64,000 bases of DNA from Candidatus Nanoarchaeia archaeon (GCA_030700155.1 JAUYJU010000016.1:1188-65187); one strand, 5' to 3'. Counted from the first letter of the stretch, positions 8,592-27,496 are shown. The notes: a model not told the origin generated them from the letters alone. Program-made: numbers and translations.

Positions 8592-9041
8592 ATGACCTTA
8601 AAATTTAAAGATGTACCTAAGATGCTGCCTTTGAATGAAGCATTCAAGCACATGGTTCGCTATGATCCTTATAGAATGGTGTCTAATAATTTTACTAGGG
8701 GGCAATACAACCAAATAGCAAAGACCCTAAAAAGAAGAAATGAAATAAGACGCGCAACCGCAGTGCCAGTTACCTTATTAGCTAAGGGTATTGATTATAA
8801 CCTGGTTTATAATGAAATGCTTAAACGTGGAGCCTTAAGAGAATTTTTGTTCTGCGCCTCTGTTGCAAGAAGTTTAGCAAGGGAATTTCACGATGAGTTA
8901 CCTGAAGGGCTTGAAAAATTAGCACAAAGTTATGATGGAGATCCTGGAGCGATGGCAGATTTAGCTCCGTATTATAAAGAAGAATTCAAACATTTTTATG
9001 GGGTGTATCGTAGATATGGCTCTAGAACCACTAGCGCATGA
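8592..9041 (+). CDS. Hypothetical protein; possible partner or antitoxin of the downstream nucleotidyltransferase
   Basis: 149-aa ORF overlapping next gene by 44 nt. Confidence 0.3.
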   Translation: MTLKFKDVPKMLPLNEAFKHMVRYDPYRMVSNNFTRGQYNQIAKTLKRRNEIRRATAVPVTLLAKGIDYNLVYNEMLKRGALREFLFCASVARSLAREFHDELPEGLEKLAQSYDGDPGAMADLAPYYKEEFKHFYGVYRRYGSRTTSA

Positions 9042-9543
9042 ATTTCTTTCTAGGTTAAATTCTGTGATTAAGAAAAAAGTTACTGTTGTTTTAATTGGAG
9101 GAAGTGCACTTTCTACTTTAGGTTTAAAATCTACTACGGAAGATGTTGATATAGTGTGTCGTTCTTCAGAACCGATTGTTGCTAATTTTTGCAGGGAATA
9201 TCTTAAACGTTATAAAGTAAAAGTTGAGTTCTTTGTTGATGGGTTATTTAAAAATATTAGAATAAAGGATTATTTAGAGAGCGCTTATCCTTATGTCCAA
9301 GATGAATTTCAAAATCTGGATATAAAACTTTTAAGTTTGCCTGATATAATCTTAACAAAAATAAGTCGCTCTTTGCCTCGTGATTTTGAGGATATTGCAA
9401 GAGTCTTACAGAAACAAGAAATTAGTGAAACAGAACTGGATAAGCGCTTTCTTTATTTATTAAAGAATACTATTGGAGACAAAACTGACTTCAAAGAAAA
9501 ATATGATAATTTTAAGAAACTATATGGAACTCTTTTAAAATAA
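8998..9543 (+). CDS. Nucleotidyltransferase-fold protein (GS motif; AbiEii/MNT-like)
   Basis: VLIGGSALSTLG...TEDVDIV pattern (GS..D.D of pol-beta NTase fold). Confidence 0.4.
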   Translation: MGCIVDMALEPLAHEFLSRLNSVIKKKVTVVLIGGSALSTLGLKSTTEDVDIVCRSSEPIVANFCREYLKRYKVKVEFFVDGLFKNIRIKDYLESAYPYVQDEFQNLDIKLLSLPDIILTKISRSLPRDFEDIARVLQKQEISETELDKRFLYLLKNTIGDKTDFKEKYDNFKKLYGTLLK

Positions 9544-10330: not shown

Positions 10331-10978
10331 ATGGATAAAATAATTGGTATTGATGAAGCTGGTCGTGGGCCGGTAATAGGACCTATGGTAATGGCTGGAG
10401 TTTTAATTAGTGAAGACAAGCAAGATGACCTTAGGAAAATAGGAGTTAAGGATTCTAAGTTATTAACTGCCAAAAAAAGAGAAGAACTTTATAACCAAAT
10501 TGTTAAGATGGCTGAAAAGATAGCTATTGTTATTATATCACCTAAAGAGATTGACGAAGCTGTTGAGTCTCAAACTTTAAACTTAAATTGGTTAGAAGCT
10601 ATTAAAACTGCTGAATTGATAAATGCTGCAGAGCCTGATAGGGCTTATATTGACTGCCCTTCTAATAATATTGAAGCTTATAGAAATTATTTGAAAAAAC
10701 TTTTGAGAAAAGATGTGAAATTGATTGTAGAGCACAAAGCTGATTTTAAATATTCAACTTCGGCTGCTGCTTCTATTATTGCTAAAGTAACTAGAGACAG
10801 GGAAATTACAAAGATTCAAAAAAGGTTTAAAGATCCAATGGGTTCTGGGTATCCTGCTGATCCTGTGACTGTAGAGTTCCTGAAAAAACACTGGAAAGAG
10901 GATCAGGGAATCTATAGAAAAAGCTGGGAAACGTATAAAGAGTTGGAACGTAATTCTAGCCAGAAGACTTTAATTTAA
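10331..10978 (+). CDS. rnhB: Ribonuclease HII
   Basis: N-terminal IIGIDEAGRGPVIGPMV catalytic motif. Confidence 0.85.
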   Translation: MDKIIGIDEAGRGPVIGPMVMAGVLISEDKQDDLRKIGVKDSKLLTAKKREELYNQIVKMAEKIAIVIISPKEIDEAVESQTLNLNWLEAIKTAELINAAEPDRAYIDCPSNNIEAYRNYLKKLLRKDVKLIVEHKADFKYSTSAAASIIAKVTRDREITKIQKRFKDPMGSGYPADPVTVEFLKKHWKEDQGIYRKSWETYKELERNSSQKTLI

Positions 10979-12022
10979 ATTTTTAAAAATTTCTTTTCTA
11001 AACTTATAAGTATTAGCTTGCATTGCATATCCAAACCATCCGTGCAAACTGTTGATAAAATTATCATAAGTCAACAGTCCTTCCTTAAATAAGTTTAATC
11101 TTTCATTAAAACTCTTTTCAAATTTCTTCTTATTGCTTCTTCTTAACAATTTATAGTGGTAAAATATCTTATAACCTAGAAAGCTTACGCCGTTTCTTAA
11201 AGACAGTATTTTAGACTTGTCAGGATGTAGTTTTAGTTTAAGCTTGTTAATCAAATAATTGTTTATTATCTCTTTATAATATTCAAGAATTTTCCTATTT
11301 TTATGTAAAATCACAAAATCATCAACGTATCTTATATAGTATTTCGCTTTAAGTTTGTGTTTTACAAAATAATCTAATTCATTCAAATAAACATTAGCAA
11401 AAAATTGAGAAGTGAGGTTGCCCAAAGGCATTCCTCTGCCATTAATTTTTGGACTAAAATTACCTAATATTTGTTTTATTATCCAGATTACTTTTTCGTC
11501 CTTTATCTTTTTATGAATAATTCCCAGCAAAACCTTATGAGAGACGGTTTCAAAATAATGCTTAATATCAGCTTTCAGTAAATAGCCTTGAACCAAGTTG
11601 TTATCAAAAACATTATTTACTAATCTACCATTGCTAGAAACTTTTCTTTTGAATTTATCAAATCTTAAAACTGCCTTACTTGTTCCTTTTTTAAGTCTGC
11701 TGGCGTAAGAATCGTGTATAAATCTTTTCTCAAATATATCGCCTATTACATTAATTATCGCGTGATAAACTACTCTGTCTCTGAAATCTGAAGCGTGTAT
11801 AATCCTTGTTTTTGGTTCTCTTATAATAAACTTTTTTAGTAGTCTAGGAATATATGTTTGAGACTCTAATTCTTCTTTTAATTTATTTAAATTATTTTTA
11901 AGATTTGCTTCAAACTTTTTGACATAAGGTCTCTTTGACTTTCTTTTTCTGGCTTTTCTGAAAGCCTTGCTTAGATTCTCTATTGAACAAAGTTCTTTGT
12001 ATAATTTGTTGTAAGTTTTCAT
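10970..12022 (-). CDS. DGR-type reverse transcriptase
   Basis: RT motifs including YIRYVDDFVILH (YxDD) and MPLGNLTSQFFANVYLNELD. The SQ in motif 4 is the DGR RT hallmark (group II intron RTs have SP). 350 aa, no maturase/endonuclease domains; adjacent TR. Confidence 0.85.
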   Translation of the reverse strand: MKTYNKLYKELCSIENLSKAFRKARKRKSKRPYVKKFEANLKNNLNKLKEELESQTYIPRLLKKFIIREPKTRIIHASDFRDRVVYHAIINVIGDIFEKRFIHDSYASRLKKGTSKAVLRFDKFKRKVSSNGRLVNNVFDNNLVQGYLLKADIKHYFETVSHKVLLGIIHKKIKDEKVIWIIKQILGNFSPKINGRGMPLGNLTSQFFANVYLNELDYFVKHKLKAKYYIRYVDDFVILHKNRKILEYYKEIINNYLINKLKLKLHPDKSKILSLRNGVSFLGYKIFYHYKLLRRSNKKKFEKSFNERLNLFKEGLLTYDNFINSLHGWFGYAMQANTYKFRKEIFKNLN

Positions 12023-12049
12023 TCTTAATCGCCTAGTAAATCTTGGGCT

Positions 12050-12160
12050 ATTCCAAGGTCGGAAGTCTCGTCTAATTTCTTAGATTTCGAGTTCTGCGGA
12101 TTCCTGTTGCAATTCAGGTTAACCCTATCGGAATTCGCATCGAACCTCGCGACAGCTGTA
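12050..12160 (-). repeat. DGR template repeat (TR); aligned core 12084..12156
   Basis: Aligns to VR1 and VR2; every difference is at a plus-strand T, i.e. a template adenine on the coding (minus) strand. Confidence 0.85.
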
Positions 12161-12400
12161 GCAGATTTATCAAGTTTCACCATAACTTTAGCTTTCACTT
12201 AAAACTTCCCCAAGGTCTTTCATCACTACTAACTATTGTTATTGTATTTCATGGCATTTAGACTTAAATTGTCCATGCACTATAAATCTGCGTGTAGCCC
12301 AAGACTGCCACTTTCCTAGATTTTTACTGGGATGCAAAAATCTCAAGAGGCAAATTTAGGCAATTCTTCAGAGAATTAAAGGCTATAATAATTTAACTAC

Positions 12401-13204
12401 TCAAATTTTTTCGCGCGCCTGACGTACCCCAAGGCCGGAATTCGAGTACTGCGGATTCCTGTCGCAATCCAGGCCAACCCTATCGGAATCCGCACCGAAC
12501 CCCGCGACATGTTGGTCTCTAGGGAACCAGTAGTGTAAGCTTCCATTATTTGCATTTGGTAAAGGCAATCCTTGAGAAGTTGCATTTTGCAACCAATCTT
12601 CCAAATCTATTCCTGGATCTCTATCTGTCATCAAACAATCTTCCAAAGGTTCTGAATATTTTGGCTGTAATGGTCCATTTACAATTCTATGTCCATAATC
12701 AACCATAAATTCGCTTACTCCTAAAATACCTTTAAAGCCTTTTTTGGATTGCTTTCTGAATTTGGCATCTAGCCACTCTGCCCTATAGGGACTTCTTACT
12801 TCAATGATTTCATTTAAAATTTGAGTTACTCCTTGAGGATTTACTTTCTTTCCTGTTCCGTCGTAAACTACTTTTCCTGATTTTAACAAATTAAGGAAAT
12901 CTACGTACTGCCTTATTGTAAGCATGAAGTTTCCTTCATCGTGTAAACTTTTATGAACTTGATTCCAAGTGTGGTTGTGATATTTTCTTTCTTTTGAAAC
13001 TAACAAATCAGGATATGAATAAGAACCGTGAGTTCTTCCTTCCAATATTAAATAAGCTTCAGGATTTGAAATATTTGAAGCTGGAATTATTATCTTAGGT
13101 TTTGGTTGAGGTTCTGGAGTTTCTTTCTTAGAGTCTAAACTAGCCAGAACTTTTTTCAAATTTTCTTTAGGATCTCTTCCAAAGAATCTTTTAGGTTTTG
13201 TCAT
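12401..13204 (-). CDS. DGR target protein 1 (variable C-terminus; FGE-sulfatase / C-type-lectin-like fold inferred)
   Basis: VR1 occupies the last ~30 codons before the stop. N-terminal 41 aa identical to target 2. C-terminus ..GVRQAREKI. Confidence 0.75.
   Translation of the reverse strand: MTKPKRFFGRDPKENLKKVLASLDSKKETPEPQPKPKIIIPASNISNPEAYLILEGRTHGSYSYPDLLVSKERKYHNHTWNQVHKSLHDEGNFMLTIRQYVDFLNLLKSGKVVYDGTGKKVNPQGVTQILNEIIEVRSPYRAEWLDAKFRKQSKKGFKGILGVSEFMVDYGHRIVNGPLQPKYSEPLEDCLMTDRDPGIDLEDWLQNATSQGLPLPNANNGSLHYWFPRDQHVAGFGADSDRVGLDCDRNPQYSNSGLGVRQAREKI
12419..12499 (-). repeat. DGR variable repeat VR1 (3' end of target 1)
   Basis: 71-nt alignment to TR with 9 mismatches, all TR-T(plus)/A(coding) to A or C. 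Followed by GC-rich ccaaggccgg..cgcgcgcc (IMH plus possible hairpin). Confidence 0.85.
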
Positions 13205-14911
13205 TGTTTCACAAACCTCTTGTAAGTATTTGTTGCTGTATTAACCATTAATTTTGAAAGTTCATCTCCTGAATTTACATAAAACACAGGTAACTCCATA
13301 TTCTCAAGATCTTGCGTGAATGCATTTGATCTTCCTATTTGAATATGTGCAAAATAATTGTCTTTAGTTAATCTTTCAAATTCAGATTTAGCTGAACTCC
13401 AATTTTCTATCTCTCCGTCTGAAATAGACAAAACAAAACTTTCTCTTCCATTTAAAGCATCAACTAAAGTTTTTGCGTCTAATCTTGTGTCTTCCCAATC
13501 TGGAGATAAAGCTAATTTTCTTAGTTTTTGAATATTCTTGAAATCTGATTCTTCATATCTTGTATTTGAAGAAAATAATGATAATCCATGTCCAATATAC
13601 TGAGCTATTCCCTGAGATTGTAAAAACTGTTCAATGCCATAAAAACCTAATAAAGCATAATGATATTTACTATTATCCCCCCAAGGAATAAAAGTCGTAT
13701 CTCCTTGATTTCCATTAATTCCTTCCTGCATAGATCCTGAATTATCCAAGACAACCATCTTGAAATCAGGGAAAGACCTTTTCTGGACTTTTGCTTTTTG
13801 AGTTATTGTCAAAGGTGTTCTTTGATATCCAAATGTAATTCCTTCGTCTGTTGCATATAATTTAGTATGTTTGACTTTTCTAATGTCGTCTGTCTCTGGG
13901 TCAAAAGGTCTGAAATTTAAAGGTGCTATTGCCAAGCCTTGCTCTCTAGTCATTGCTTCAACTTCAACTGGAATTGACCTAGCTAACCTTCTGTATAATA
14001 AATCTAACTGCTCATGAGATTCAAAATTGGGTGAAAGTCCTTCTCCAGATTTGTAGCGTCCATAAGCGACTTCTTCTTTGCCTTCTTTTGTTGAAGCTTT
14101 CTCTTCCAAACCATTTCCACTTGCATCTTGACCTTGAGAATCCTGCCATGCTGAAAGTCTTTCTGTTGGTGGTATTTCTAATAAAGGTTCTAAAGCTTTT
14201 GTAAACCTTGAAGCCATTTCAGGCCATCTTGATTTGTCAAATAGTTTATTTATATCTTTTTCATCCAGATTTAATTCTTTTATTGCTTTATTAACTGCTT
14301 TTTCAACTTCTTTTGTGTTTAAATTGTGCCTCTTTAATAAAGCTTTATCTGCATTGTCTCCCCATAAATGCATGTTTAATTTAACAAAAGCTTCATAAAA
14401 AGGAGTGTAACCTTCTTGCCCTTGTTTTCTGCTTTGAAATCCTTGGTCATCCCAGAATAAAACCTGTCCTGAAAAATTTCCAGTATAATCCCTACATCTT
14501 GCATTATTTATTAAATCTTCAAAAGCGTTTGCTACATAACCTGCCTGTCCTTGCTTGTCTTCTGGTAAGGATTCTTTTACTGCTTCTAAAACTAAATCGT
14601 GGTTATGCGTATCATAAGGGCATCCGAATCCTGAATTGAATGGAAGCTCCCAGTGCCCTAATTCATGGTGTAAAATATCAGTTAATAATTGTGTTTTTGC
14701 ATCTTCAATTTTCTTTTTTCTTGCGTAGGCTTTTTGCCTTCTGCCTGTTACTGGATTAAATCCTTTTTTAACATTCATTTCTATAGTCCAATCTTTTGGA
14801 TTTATGTGCGCAGAAACGTTTTCTTTTGCTTCATCATACTCATTTAATTTCAATGTTCCGCTAACTAGACCTATACTATTCTTTATCCGGTTTAATTCTT
14901 GAACTAAATTC
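13201..14911 (-). CDS. VWA-domain protein with N-terminal HExxH metallopeptidase-like motif (MoxR partner)
   Basis: MIDAS VVLDNSGSMQ in C-terminal half; LHHELGHWELP in N-terminal part. ORF-track start (14997) runs into VR2; real ATG (MNLVQELN) at 14911, 5 nt after target-2 stop. Confidence 0.65.
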
Positions 14912-14915
14912 ATTT

Positions 14916-15620
14916 TCAAATTTTTTCGCGCGCCTGACGTACCCCAAGGTCGGAACCCGAGCCCCGCGGATTCCAGCCGCAAAACAGGCCAACCCAATCG
15001 GAACCCGCATCGAACCCCGCGACAGCTTCATCTATTGGATGCCAGAAATAAACATTATCTCCCTGCTTGTACTTCTGCAATCTTGATTTTTTGGCAGGTA
15101 ATCCTTGTTTGTTTAAGCTTGATAAATCAGCATAACATTCTTCCATTACGCAGCTATCTAGAGATTCTGTATTCTGAGGTACTAATTTACCATTAATTAT
15201 TCTGTGATTGTAACTGATTTTTAATCCGTTATTGTTCGTGAAATAAGCATCAAGATGTTCTGCTCTCCAAGGATCTCTTTTTTCAGTGATTTCATTATAA
15301 ATATTTTTGAATTCATCATTTCCATTCTTTAGAGCTTCAAGAAAATCCAAGAATTCAGGAATTGTGAGCATTCTTGCATCTTCTTTGTGTAAAGATTCAT
15401 GTGATTGATACCAATTTTTATTAAAATGTGTTTTTTGTTTCGCTATGTATAAATTGCGTGAAGGCAAATAAATATAATCTTCTTTGTCAAGACCTTCTGG
15501 AATTATTATCTTAGGTTTTGGTTGAGGTTCTGGAGTTTCTTTCTTAGAGTCTAAACTAGCCAGAACTTTTTTCAAATTTTCTTTAGGATCTCTTCCAAAG
15601 AATCTTTTAGGTTTTGTCAT
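14916..15620 (-). CDS. DGR target protein 2 (paralog of target 1, variable C-terminus)
   Basis: VR2 at 3' end. First ~125 nt identical to target 1. C-terminus ..GVRQAREKI. Confidence 0.75.
   Translation of the reverse strand: MTKPKRFFGRDPKENLKKVLASLDSKKETPEPQPKPKIIIPEGLDKEDYIYLPSRNLYIAKQKTHFNKNWYQSHESLHKEDARMLTIPEFLDFLEALKNGNDEFKNIYNEITEKRDPWRAEHLDAYFTNNNGLKISYNHRIINGKLVPQNTESLDSCVMEECYADLSSLNKQGLPAKKSRLQKYKQGDNVYFWHPIDEAVAGFDAGSDWVGLFCGWNPRGSGSDLGVRQAREKI
14940..15023 (-). repeat. DGR variable repeat VR2 (3' end of target 2)
   Basis: Aligns to TR 12084..12157 with about 21 mismatches, all at TR T(plus)/A(coding). Same GC-rich 3' flank as VR1. Confidence 0.85.
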
Positions 15621-16809
15621 CAGCTAACCTCTCAAGCAAACTTTTCATGAAAGACCATCTGCCTGAAAATACACTAAGTAATCTCTCATTTTTCTTTCCC
15701 TTGTCTGCAAGTTCCAGTCCAGCAGCAATTTTATCTTTTCTGTCATCGCTAAATTCTGTTCTAGTTGCATTAATTACAGCATCCATTGCTTTATAATGGT
15801 CTTCTCCATAGGTTTGCCTTACTAAAGCTTCATTTAATATTCCAGAGTAAGCTGAAGTGAACTTGAAAGCCTGCATCATTGATTCTAGTGGATCAGGTGT
15901 TTCAGCGCCTTTTTCCTGAACAATTTGGTCTAAAGCTTGGCTTAATGTTATAATTGATTTTGCAGCTCTTGGTGATACTGGCAAAACCAAAGCAGCATCT
16001 GAACCAGCTTCATGATTTTCCAAAGCAGTTGGCCATGCAGACTTCATTTTAGTTTTGCTTTCTCCATTTTCTAAAGTATCAAGTCCATGGATCAAATACA
16101 AAGCTATTAATTTCTTTTCATCAGATACTTCAGCTTCATTTAGTTTTCTATGGGCTTCTCTGATTTCAGCGGTCTTATCTTCTGCTTTAGCATCAAAGTT
16201 AACTCTGGGGTTTCTGTCACCGGTCAGTATTTCAAAAGTGTCAATAGGCTGAGGTCTAAAATAATCTGTATCTATAACAAGATGCATTCTGTCTCTTAAA
16301 GCTCTTCCTAATTCATTTGATGATTCTGTAAATTGCTGCCCAATATTTCCAGTAGCAATACCTACTGAATATCCATCACCAATGGGATAAGCTTTTCCAT
16401 CTATTTCTATAAAACCATCAAATAAGTTAAATAACTGAGCACGAACAGCAGGAACACAATTAGGCAATTCATCAATAGTAATCAGATTATAATTAATCCT
16501 ATCAGTTAAATCCTTGAATTTAACTCCAGCTGCATCTCCTTGTTTCAATGCTTTCAGGAATTCAGGATTGACTTGCTGGAATAATTCTCTAGTATCCATA
16601 TCATTTCTTCCTAGAATAAATAATGATTTGTCTCCAAAATAATGAGCTACATCTCTTGCTAATTGAGTTTTACCAGAACCAGTATCACCCTGTAAGAAAA
16701 CGTTTAATCTTCCTCTTAGAGCGGCCTCTACCATGTCGTGCATGTAAATTGGAACTCCATTTAAGGTAGTTAATTCAGTACTATTTCTGTAATTCTTCGG
16801 TTTGAACAT
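15607..16809 (-). CDS. MoxR-family AAA+ ATPase (CbbQ/NorQ/GvpN-like)
   Basis: Walker A FLQGDTGSGKTQLARDV, Walker B ITIDELPN, MoxR lid VLPVSPRAAKSIITLSQA. 14-nt overlap with target 2. Confidence 0.8.
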   Translation of the reverse strand: MFKPKNYRNSTELTTLNGVPIYMHDMVEAALRGRLNVFLQGDTGSGKTQLARDVAHYFGDKSLFILGRNDMDTRELFQQVNPEFLKALKQGDAAGVKFKDLTDRINYNLITIDELPNCVPAVRAQLFNLFDGFIEIDGKAYPIGDGYSVGIATGNIGQQFTESSNELGRALRDRMHLVIDTDYFRPQPIDTFEILTGDRNPRVNFDAKAEDKTAEIREAHRKLNEAEVSDEKKLIALYLIHGLDTLENGESKTKMKSAWPTALENHEAGSDAALVLPVSPRAAKSIITLSQALDQIVQEKGAETPDPLESMMQAFKFTSAYSGILNEALVRQTYGEDHYKAMDAVINATRTEFSDDRKDKIAAGLELADKGKKNERLLSVFSGRWSFMKSLLERLADDKT

Positions 16810-24044: not shown

Positions 24045-27275
<3,231 letters not shown>

Positions 27276-27390
27276 AATGGTATTAACCAGTGATTTCTCA
27301 CACCTATGCACGATTCTCATAAAAATGAAAATCCTTCACCCAAGTCTTTGCGAAAGAACAGGAGCTGCATCGAATTTTTTACTTCTTAAG

Positions 27391-27496
27391 TGGACCCGTC
27401 GGGATTCGAACCCGAGGCCCCTCGCTTTTTTGATTTTCAAAAATCTTTTGAAAACATTTGCAAAGCGAGTGCTCTACCGGACTGAGCTACGGGCCC
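27391..27496 (-). tRNA. tRNA-Ala(UGC) with ~32-nt intron, in 16S-23S spacer
   Basis: gggcccgtagctcagtccggtagagcactcgcttTGCa[intron]agcgaggggcctcgggttcgaatcccgacgggtcca; G3:U70 Ala identity pair; intron after anticodon-loop position 37. Confidence 0.75.

Follow-up and report, generated by a model that had tools for sequence, protein, structure and literature searches.

Two diversity-generating retroelements (DGRs) provide the closest points of comparison for the locus described here. In the DGR of Bordetella phage BPP-1, insertion of an engineered td intron into the template proved the existence of an RNA intermediate (PMC5703328), and a duplex flanking the template repeat (TR) has been described in the phage ribonucleoprotein and in 207 other DGRs (Handa et al., bioRxiv 10.1101/2023.10.23.563531). 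In the DGRs of the DUSEL4 Nanoarchaeota (SCGC AAA011-G17 and -L22), the site of initiation of mutagenic homing (IMH) and its TR counterpart (IMH*) form the pair TGGGGT/TGGAAT, and a GRA-loop hairpin was reported after the IMH (Paul et al. 2015, PMC4372165). The RNA motifs RT-1 to RT-19 lie near reverse transcriptase (RT) genes, but only RT-10 has been linked to DGRs (Weinberg et al. 2017, PMC5737381). Finally, the introns of archaea that are marked by the motif known as bulge-helix-bulge (BHB), i.e. two 3-nt bulges flanking a 4-bp helix, have been recorded in tRNA, in rRNA and in a small number of pre-mRNAs, and relaxed forms of the motif, helix-bulge-helix (HBh') and bulge-helix-loop (BHL), are known (PMC6379350).

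Here we analyzed a 64,000-nt stretch of DNA from Candidatus Nanoarchaeia archaeon (GCA_030700155.1 JAUYJU010000016.1:1188-65187; henceforth the window, with positions counted from its first letter), the minus strand of which carries all parts of this DGR in an apparent single operon, followed by an RNA gene and then the RT gene. The reading that we favor, at a probability of about 0.7, is that this is an active-looking DPANN DGR that lacks the accessory protein Avd, contains a spliced BHB mini-intron in its template and is organized around an RNA domain made of the RT-16 motif and two closing helices, X and X2. The locus resembles that of BPP-1 in its homologous RT (8ub7), adenine mutagenesis and IMH/IMH* directionality and differs from it in having no Avd and in having its large structured RNA 5' of the TR (RT-16, ∼190 nt) instead of 3' (Sp, 140 nt). 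Further, whereas the td intron in BPP-1 was engineered, the predicted intron here is natural, of the protein-cut BHB type and dependent on host enzymes. Unlike the DUSEL4 DGRs, the window has two targets whose operon also encodes an AAA+ ATPase and a protein of 570 aa. For comparison, 160 related loci (L-numbers), 80 of them genome loci, were collected from GTDB genomes and JGI metagenomes. The repeats and the RT are as follows.

10970-12022, minus: DGR reverse transcriptase, 350 aa (Pfam RVT_1)
12041-12052, minus: IMH* (AAUA) and 3' strand of helix X, UAGCCCAAGA
12053-12064, minus: TR exon 2, UUCCGACCUUGG, in which homology resumes and variable repeat 1 has an A>G change
12065-12085, minus: 21-nt likely BHB-type mini-intron in the TR, AUCUAAGAAAUUAGACGAGAC, missing from both variable repeats
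12088-12091 with 12067-12070, minus: predicted intron helix H, CUCG paired with CGAG
12086-12157, minus: TR exon 1, 72 nt with 21 adenines
12401-12430, minus: IMH and GC-rich element after variable repeat 1
12429-12509, minus: variable repeat 1 (VR1), equal to the TR as if spliced, with 9 adenine-site substitutions, one of them past the presumed splice junction
14916-14945, minus: IMH and GC-rich element after variable repeat 2, GGGGTACGTCAGGCGCGCGAAAAAATTTGA, stop codon included
14944-15027, minus: variable repeat 2 (VR2), equal to the TR as if spliced, with 16 adenine-site substitutions

An earlier sequence-only reading of this DNA had proposed a TR and two VRs that differ from it exclusively at adenines. 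All of the repeats are present, but the TR core spans 12086-12157 rather than 12084-12156, and the VR ranges had been drawn slightly short. Alignment and a scripted tally bore out the adenine specificity: within a 69-nt core (TR 12154 to 12086, containing 20 TR adenines), 24 of 24 differences fall at TR adenines, and A>G accounts for 19 of them. VR1 differs at 8 core positions (7 A>G and 1 A>T; hypergeometric P = 1.5e-5), reaching the 9 originally counted when the 12 nt past the insertion are added. VR2 differs at 16 (12 A>G and 4 A>T; P = 2.5e-12), with or without those 12 nt, and not at about 21 as had been claimed; the count rises to 18 only if one includes AA>GG, the change that constantly sets the IMH apart from the IMH*. 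At the 5' edge of VR1, homology stops 3 nt sooner (12155-12157), and the differences there are not at adenines.

Comparison of the IMH (CTTGGGGTA) with the IMH* (CTTGGAATA) revealed the expected differing pair, and the AA of the IMH* is GG in every VR seen in related loci, the AA/GG contrast recurring in essentially all of these loci. The GC-rich element common to both VRs, as previously noted, comprises 30 identical nt (12401-12430 and 14916-14945) that start with TGGGGT, where the TR has TGGAAT, and run through the stop codon. A hairpin had also been suggested after the IMH; the DNA folds no better than its shuffles (z = +0.6 and +1.0), and the hairpin is not supported for this locus, which thereby differs from the DUSEL4 DGRs and from relatives such as L001 that do have one. 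A 57-aa open reading frame (ORF) lying over the TR (12025-12198) has no family match and was treated as spurious.

The TR is interrupted, as the sequence-only reading had observed, by about 21 nt that the VRs lack (12065-12085), after which homology resumes with TTCCGACCTTGG at 12053-12064. The insertion folds as CUCG-AAA-UCUAA-GAAA-UUAGA-CGAG. To look for others, the 170 nt upstream of each RT were searched with a pattern that fixed helix H, and TR insertions of like build (CUCG-AAA-stem-loop-stem-CGAG-NN) were found in 20 of 161 loci, with lengths of 16-42 nt that are mostly not multiples of three. The sequence AACTCGAA stands at the insertion site in 24 TRs, 20 of which carry an insertion; L004 has a TR with no intron but with the same exon junction, CTCGAA|TTCC. 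The 4-bp helix CUCG:CGAG and the AAA bulge are present in 20 of 20 loci (partly imposed by the pattern), and helix H is held by the minimum-energy fold in 15-16 of the 20. An inner stem, h', is found in all 20 loci, with a mean of 4.55 bp compared with 0.67 in shuffles (0/2000), and three of the four pairs tested in it show compensatory changes (0/500 shuffles). Among the variants of the stem are UCU/AGA, UUU/AAA, UCA/UGA and UAU/AUA.

The junctions are equally regular. In all 18 VRs from those 12 of the 20 loci whose contig extends to a VR, exon 1 runs to CTCG and is followed by 2 variable nt and then by exon 2, which always begins exactly 2 nt past CGAG. The two junction nucleotides read AA, GA, TA, AG, GG, TT, CT or GT and behave as would the first two bulge adenines after mutagenesis; they do not derive from the NN after CGAG because that NN is often C/T where the VRs show G or A. 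Junction 1 thus falls after the second nucleotide of the 3-nt bulge and junction 2 falls 2 nt past the 3' strand of the helix, and because both junctions are located 2 nt 3' of the strands of helix H, they reproduce the staggered geometry of archaeal BHB cleavage. Adenine substitutions also occur in exon 2 (in VR1 of the window and in L012, L062, L083 and L001), and their presence on both sides of the junction indicates that the template of the cDNA was contiguous across it. The insertion is absent, exactly and invariably, from VRs that carry adenine substitutions on both of its sides.

In a neighbor-joining tree of the RTs, the intron-bearing loci form mostly two clusters with intronless loci interleaved, pointing to intron gain or loss. 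L001, which is the published locus of Nanoarchaeota SCGC AAA011-G17 (AQRL01000028.1), contains an 18-nt BHB-type TR insertion at 1714-1731, whereas the paper on the DUSEL4 DGRs (PMC4372165) mentions no TR insertion; a second RT locus on the same contig, L049, has a TR with no insertion. Inspection of ∼50 TR/VR-bearing loci revealed no large TR insertion with another central helix, only indels of 3-6 nt. In viral contigs, the pattern AACTCGAAAT-N(6-36)-ACGAGA gave 120 matches, none of them followed by an IMH*-like motif, and we regard these as chance.

The window also contains an independent intron. The tRNA-Ala(UGC) gene in the 16S-23S spacer, 27391-27496(-), is interrupted by a 32-nt intron in the canonical position of the anticodon loop, which was missed by ARAGORN at its default setting and found by Rfam and by ARAGORN -i; in our reading of its geometry, helix H is UUUG:CAAA and the bulges are CA|A and AA|A. 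Because this intron occupies the canonical site, BHB splicing machinery must exist in the organism. The TR insertion and archaeal BHB introns (tRNA, rRNA and Cbf5 pre-mRNA introns cut by the tRNA-splicing endonuclease EndA, and likewise this tRNA-Ala intron) have in common a 4-bp helix, a 3-nt 5' bulge, a stem h' capped by a loop and junctions that are both 2 nt 3' of the helix strands. They differ in that the host RNA here is the template of a retroelement, the insertions are 16-42 nt long, no outer helix is conserved, and excision is deduced from DNA copies of the product. Overall, we consider that the 21-nt insertion is likely an archaeal BHB-type intron that is removed before mutagenic copying.

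Several points weigh against this interpretation. The invariance of helix H arises by construction, because the search pattern imposed CUCG:CGAG. The outer helix h is not conserved: complementarity between exon 1 and exon 2 has a mean of 4.0, compared with 3.8 for permuted partners (373/2000), and only 4 of the 20 loci have a contiguous helix h of at least 3 bp, so that the 3' cut site lies in a loop with no defined 3-nt bulge. The insertion is consequently not a canonical hBHBh' motif and fits only the relaxed HBh'/BHL class, whose motifs are known substrates of (alpha-beta)2 and epsilon2 endonucleases alone (PMC5829648). An EndA or RtcB gene was found in none of the 20 window ORFs scanned. 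Moreover, the case for TR splicing is drawn from a comparison of DNA with DNA.

The main rival explanation, which we hold to be unlikely, is that the insertion stays unspliced and the RT skips the hairpin by a jump on the template, leaving at nucleotide 1 of exon 2 and landing on the second adenine of the bulge. That the insertion is a stable predicted hairpin speaks for a jump of this kind, as does the template switching known in group II-like RTs. Further, differences in length between TR and VR, which affect about 7% of DGRs, have been ascribed to RT slippage (Wu et al. 2018). However, an RT that leaps over a hairpin at its base would be expected to drop the 5' strand of the closing helix too, whereas CUCG and the two bulge adenines are always copied and CGAG+NN is always skipped, which is the BHB stagger. 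In addition, the junction is the same in 18 of 18 VRs although the insertions span 16-42 nt, and the indels attributable to slippage among the related loci measure 3-6 nt and lie at AAC runs.

A decidedly unlikely variant is that EndA cuts both sites but the exons remain unligated, with the RT copying exon 2 up to the newly made 5' end and then switching to exon 1 at its 3' end. This would produce the same junction as splicing, and in the Bordetella phage DGR, processing of the RNA belongs to priming (PMC5703328). Nevertheless, with no conserved helix h, nothing is known that would keep the exons together, and none of the 18 junctions contains added non-templated nucleotides. End-to-end switching often adds such nucleotides, and EndA leaves a 2',3'-cyclic phosphate on exon 1. 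It is very improbable that the hairpin insertion killed the TR and that the VRs are relics of a dead DGR. Although the window itself shows only one substitution in exon 2 (in VR1), loci with 51-68% identical RTs and other exons all retain an insertion that occupies this same site and combines helix H with a covarying h'. The VRs match the exons of their own locus at all non-A positions on both sides of the insertion, indicating that retrohoming continued with the insertion in place, and the RT, both targets and all of the RNA elements are intact. Finally, the notion that there is no DGR here, but a retron, abortive infection (Abi) or group II RT next to chance repeats, can practically be dismissed, because, even though Pfam assigns only the generic RVT_1, the best NCBIfam model is a group II maturase scoring below its cutoff (139 compared with 300 bits) and some homologues are labeled 'retron-type' by JGI, the DGR RT of Bordetella phage is the best match in the PDB by 17 orders of magnitude, the TR/VR differences are adenine-only to P = 2.5e-12, the VR-TR-RT order with adenine bias recurs in most of the 80 genome loci and Rfam finds no group II intron RNA.

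Consistent with this, the 350-aa RT with PLGNLTSQ and YVDDF that had been recognized by eye was confirmed and contains the motifs (I/L)GxxxSQ and YVDD. Its best PDB match, over the full length, is the Bordetella phage DGR RT, bRT (8ub7; E = 3.4e-37), whereas retron and group II RTs score 1e-19, and we therefore uphold the earlier assignment to the DGR clade and not to the retron, Abi or group II RTs. Its best match among the related loci is the published RT of Nanoarchaeota SCGC AAA011-G17 (L001), with 68% identity, from one of the genomes that gave the first descriptions of archaeal DGRs; the closest RT homologue, P0003, has 70% identity. The homologues number 7987, the named ones belonging to Nanoarchaeota and Woesearchaeota. 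Most of the 80 genome loci have a VR 300-500 nt upstream of the TR, which in turn adjoins the RT. The most distant relatives retrieved, with 37-44% identity, are from bacterial metagenome-assembled genomes (MAGs) of Omnitrophota, Planctomycetia and Anaerolineae (L074, L078 and L079). The window is archaeal, as shown by its SSU-LSU rRNA operon of archaeal type, and three of its proteins, the RT and the two targets, match NCBI proteins of a Candidatus Nanoarchaeia archaeon MAG at 100% identity (P0001, P0121 and P0214). The DGR clade of the RT, the adenine-only differences, the IMH/IMH* pair and the C-type lectin fold of the target together support the original proposal of a complete DGR. It is a real, intact DGR in a DPANN (Nanoarchaeia) genome, one more member of a very large, known DPANN clade, and apart from the likely TR intron it is ordinary for that clade.

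The RNA that contains the TR has its own set of elements, which in the window are as follows.

∼12366-12025, minus: non-coding RNA containing the TR (predicted extent)
12381-12394, minus: candidate archaeal TATA box for the DGR RNA, AAATTATTATAGCC
12357-12365, minus: 5' strand of helix X2, AAUUGCCUA, partner of 12027-12035
12153-12347, minus: RT-16 RNA (Rfam RF03019, 91.9 bits), a structured leader ending at the 5' edge of the TR
12295-12304, minus: 5' strand of helix X, UCUUGGGCUA, overlapping the conserved CUACACGC, partner of 12041-12050
12027-12035, minus: 3' strand of helix X2, UAGGCGAUU, 5 nt ahead of the RT start codon

The 245-nt spacer between TR and VR1 had been noted for the absence of an Avd-like ORF, which holds; it is not empty, however, but filled by the structured RT-16 RNA (RF03019; 91.9 bits against a gathering cutoff of 50, covering all 158 positions of the model). 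Each of the 16 related loci tested contains RT-16, whether or not it has a TR insertion, and in all 16 the RNA ends within about 3 nt of the TR start. This family was published as an RT-associated motif with no stated role, whereas here it is always a leader abutting the TR of a DGR.

Helix X pairs the 10 nt at 12295-12304, which end in the CUA of CUACACGC, with their perfect complement at 12041-12050. Covariation across 59 loci supports this pairing: of the 9 variable positions, 6.71 pair on average, compared with 5.14 ± 0.15 for permuted partners (0/5000). In a gapless alignment of 58 rows, 83.6% of cells are paired, compared with at most 46% in slid registers, and there are 91 double-change cells compared with 35.7 in shuffles (0/500). 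Similarly, minimum-energy folds of the whole RNA contain helix X in 37 of 61 loci, whereas just 2 of the 61 form the first stem of the Rfam model. For the 3' strand of that stem, the tail following the TR is a better partner, and a covarying one, than the strand assigned to it by Rfam. The 5' strand of the Rfam stem, 12315-12344(-), folds in the minimum-energy structure into a local hairpin of its own, GAGAUUUUUGC...GUAAAAAUCUAGG, which would free the 3' strand to pair with the post-TR tail. Alternative conformations of RT-16 are thus a possibility raised by the folding models.

Helix X2 pairs 12357-12365 with 12027-12035, and the relatives show (U)GUCCUAG... with ...CUAGGAC(A) at these places; across loci, the mean longest complement is 9.66, compared with 7.56 ± 0.16 for permuted partners. 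In 47 aligned loci, a TATA-like A/T-rich box is located 22-30 nt upstream of the 5' strand of X2, which suggests that the DGR RNA has its own promoter. At most 2 nt separate the end of the TR/VR homology from the base of helix X. Because an analogous TR-flanking duplex has been described by Handa et al., helices X and X2 are best read as this archaeal clade's version of a known DGR feature, the likely counterpart of the 'cPRT Stop duplex' of BPP-1 (bioRxiv 10.1101/2023.10.23.563531), although here the upstream strand is about 190 nt away, beyond RT-16.

A resemblance to retrons concerns working only. The msr-msd RNA of retrons is closed by the a1/a2 inverted repeats, and here too a terminal helix brackets the template, which ends within 2 nt of the base of the closing helix (X). 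In contrast to retrons, the RT belongs to the DGR clade, the cDNA enters target genes and no branched msDNA is implied.

With regard to Avd, which most but not all DGRs possess, no Pfam match to it was found in the spacer ORF or in the small ORFs of the window. Clustering of the 70-200-aa ORFs located in the 2.5 kb around the RT at 161 loci revealed no recurrent small protein in the archaeal loci, whereas the identical screen recovered bAvd (PF22296; E = 9.7e-24) in the bacterial outgroup. A distant or unrecognizable Avd may nonetheless be encoded elsewhere in the genome. In five loci, L074 among them, a small ORF of the bAvd family is situated some 320 nt upstream of where the RT starts, in contrast to the archaeal loci with no Avd.

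We propose that the elements described above would act in the following manner. A dedicated promoter, represented by the TATA box just past target 1, would give rise to an RNA of ∼340 nt, running roughly from 12366 to 12025(-) and consisting of RT-16 as leader, then the TR and finally a short tail. This tail would be joined to the 5' part of the RNA by helices X and X2, and because of this pairing the RT-16 core and the TR would be enclosed in one closed domain. The 21-nt relaxed HBh' mini-intron, which interrupts the TR 12 nt ahead of its 3' end, would be cut by the host EndA 2 nt 3' of each strand of CUCG:CGAG, and the exons would be ligated, presumably by RtcB. Following priming near the base of helix X, the RT would copy the 84-nt spliced TR, misincorporating at its 22 adenines, and the cDNA would replace the last ∼81-84 nt ahead of the IMH in either of the paralogous targets (VR1 or VR2), presumably to the present day. 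More broadly, we lean toward a single sub-lineage of DPANN DGRs in which a BHB mini-intron in the template, spliced by the host, is obligatory and RT-16 with X/X2 takes the place of Avd and Sp.

A search of the literature for BHB, or for splicing endonuclease, together with DGR yielded no relevant paper; the Nat Microbiol article by Paul et al. 2017 stands outside this comparison and may describe such a case. Because no paper was found that combines the two, Paul et al. 2015 is silent on the insertion and Wu et al. 2018 invoke slippage, the interpretation of the insertion as a BHB intron and the linking of RT-16 with DGRs both appear to be new. If the intron reading is correct, archaeal EndA would have a new substrate class in the form of a retroelement template, and archaeal RNA splicing would be linked to targeted protein diversification. 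The intron might lock the TR DNA against homing or couple diversification to RNA processing. The genomic VRs would then constitute a natural 'intron-tag' record of information flow via spliced RNA, i.e. a proof of the RNA intermediate that needs no experiment and extends to unculturable organisms. The RT-16 assignment and the closing helices provide, in addition, a concrete RNA model for Avd-less archaeal DGRs, with boundaries for reconstitution.

The targets are encoded in the operon upstream of the RNA gene.

12401-13204, minus: target gene 1, 267 aa, variable protein with a C-type lectin fold
13201-14913, minus: 570-aa gene between both targets
14916-15620, minus: target gene 2, encoding a 234-aa paralogue of target 1 (from the ORF list)
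15607-16809, minus: AAA+ ATPase gene, 400 aa, first in the target operon (Pfam AAA_5, E = 3.6e-10)

The VRs are located at the 3' ends of the target ORFs, in a fold that tolerates variation. Target 1 has no match in Pfam, NCBIfam or PDB sequences; an AlphaFold model built with 37 homologues as input is confident (pLDDT 92) and displays a C-type lectin fold like that of TaqVP, TvpA and AvpA. Target 1 and target 2 (P0214) are 46% identical. The first 124 nt of both genes (13081-13204 and 15497-15620; 41 codons, MTKPKRFFGRDPKENLKKVLASLDSKKETPEPQPKPKIIIP) are 100% identical in DNA, which suggests either recent gene conversion or a shared functional 5' segment. The module of AAA, target, 570-aa protein and target also occurs in L002, L003, L060, L095 and L143, and in related loci it is sometimes on the strand opposite the RT. 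The 570-aa protein is kept with the module (54-62% identity in L002, L003, L060 and L143) and has no Pfam or NCBIfam match, even at E ≤ 5. Inspection of its translation by eye revealed two motifs, HExxH (as HHELGHW) and a MIDAS-like DxSxS (as DNSGSM).

Among the neighboring features, an RNase HII gene at 10331-10978(+) is convergent with the RT gene and overlaps its 3' end by 9 nt. A functional partnership with the RT was considered and rejected, as the adjacency recurs in none of the 160 related loci and is probably coincidental. A few kb from the DGR, at 8592-9543(+), an overlapping pair of genes, the first a 149-aa ORF that matches no family and the second a DUF6036/AbiEii-like nucleotidyltransferase, looks like a type IV toxin-antitoxin system. 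A group I catalytic intron (Rfam, 53.9 bits) is located at 25061-25348(-), within the LSU rRNA (24045-27286), the match of which exceeds the length of the model by about 255 nt.

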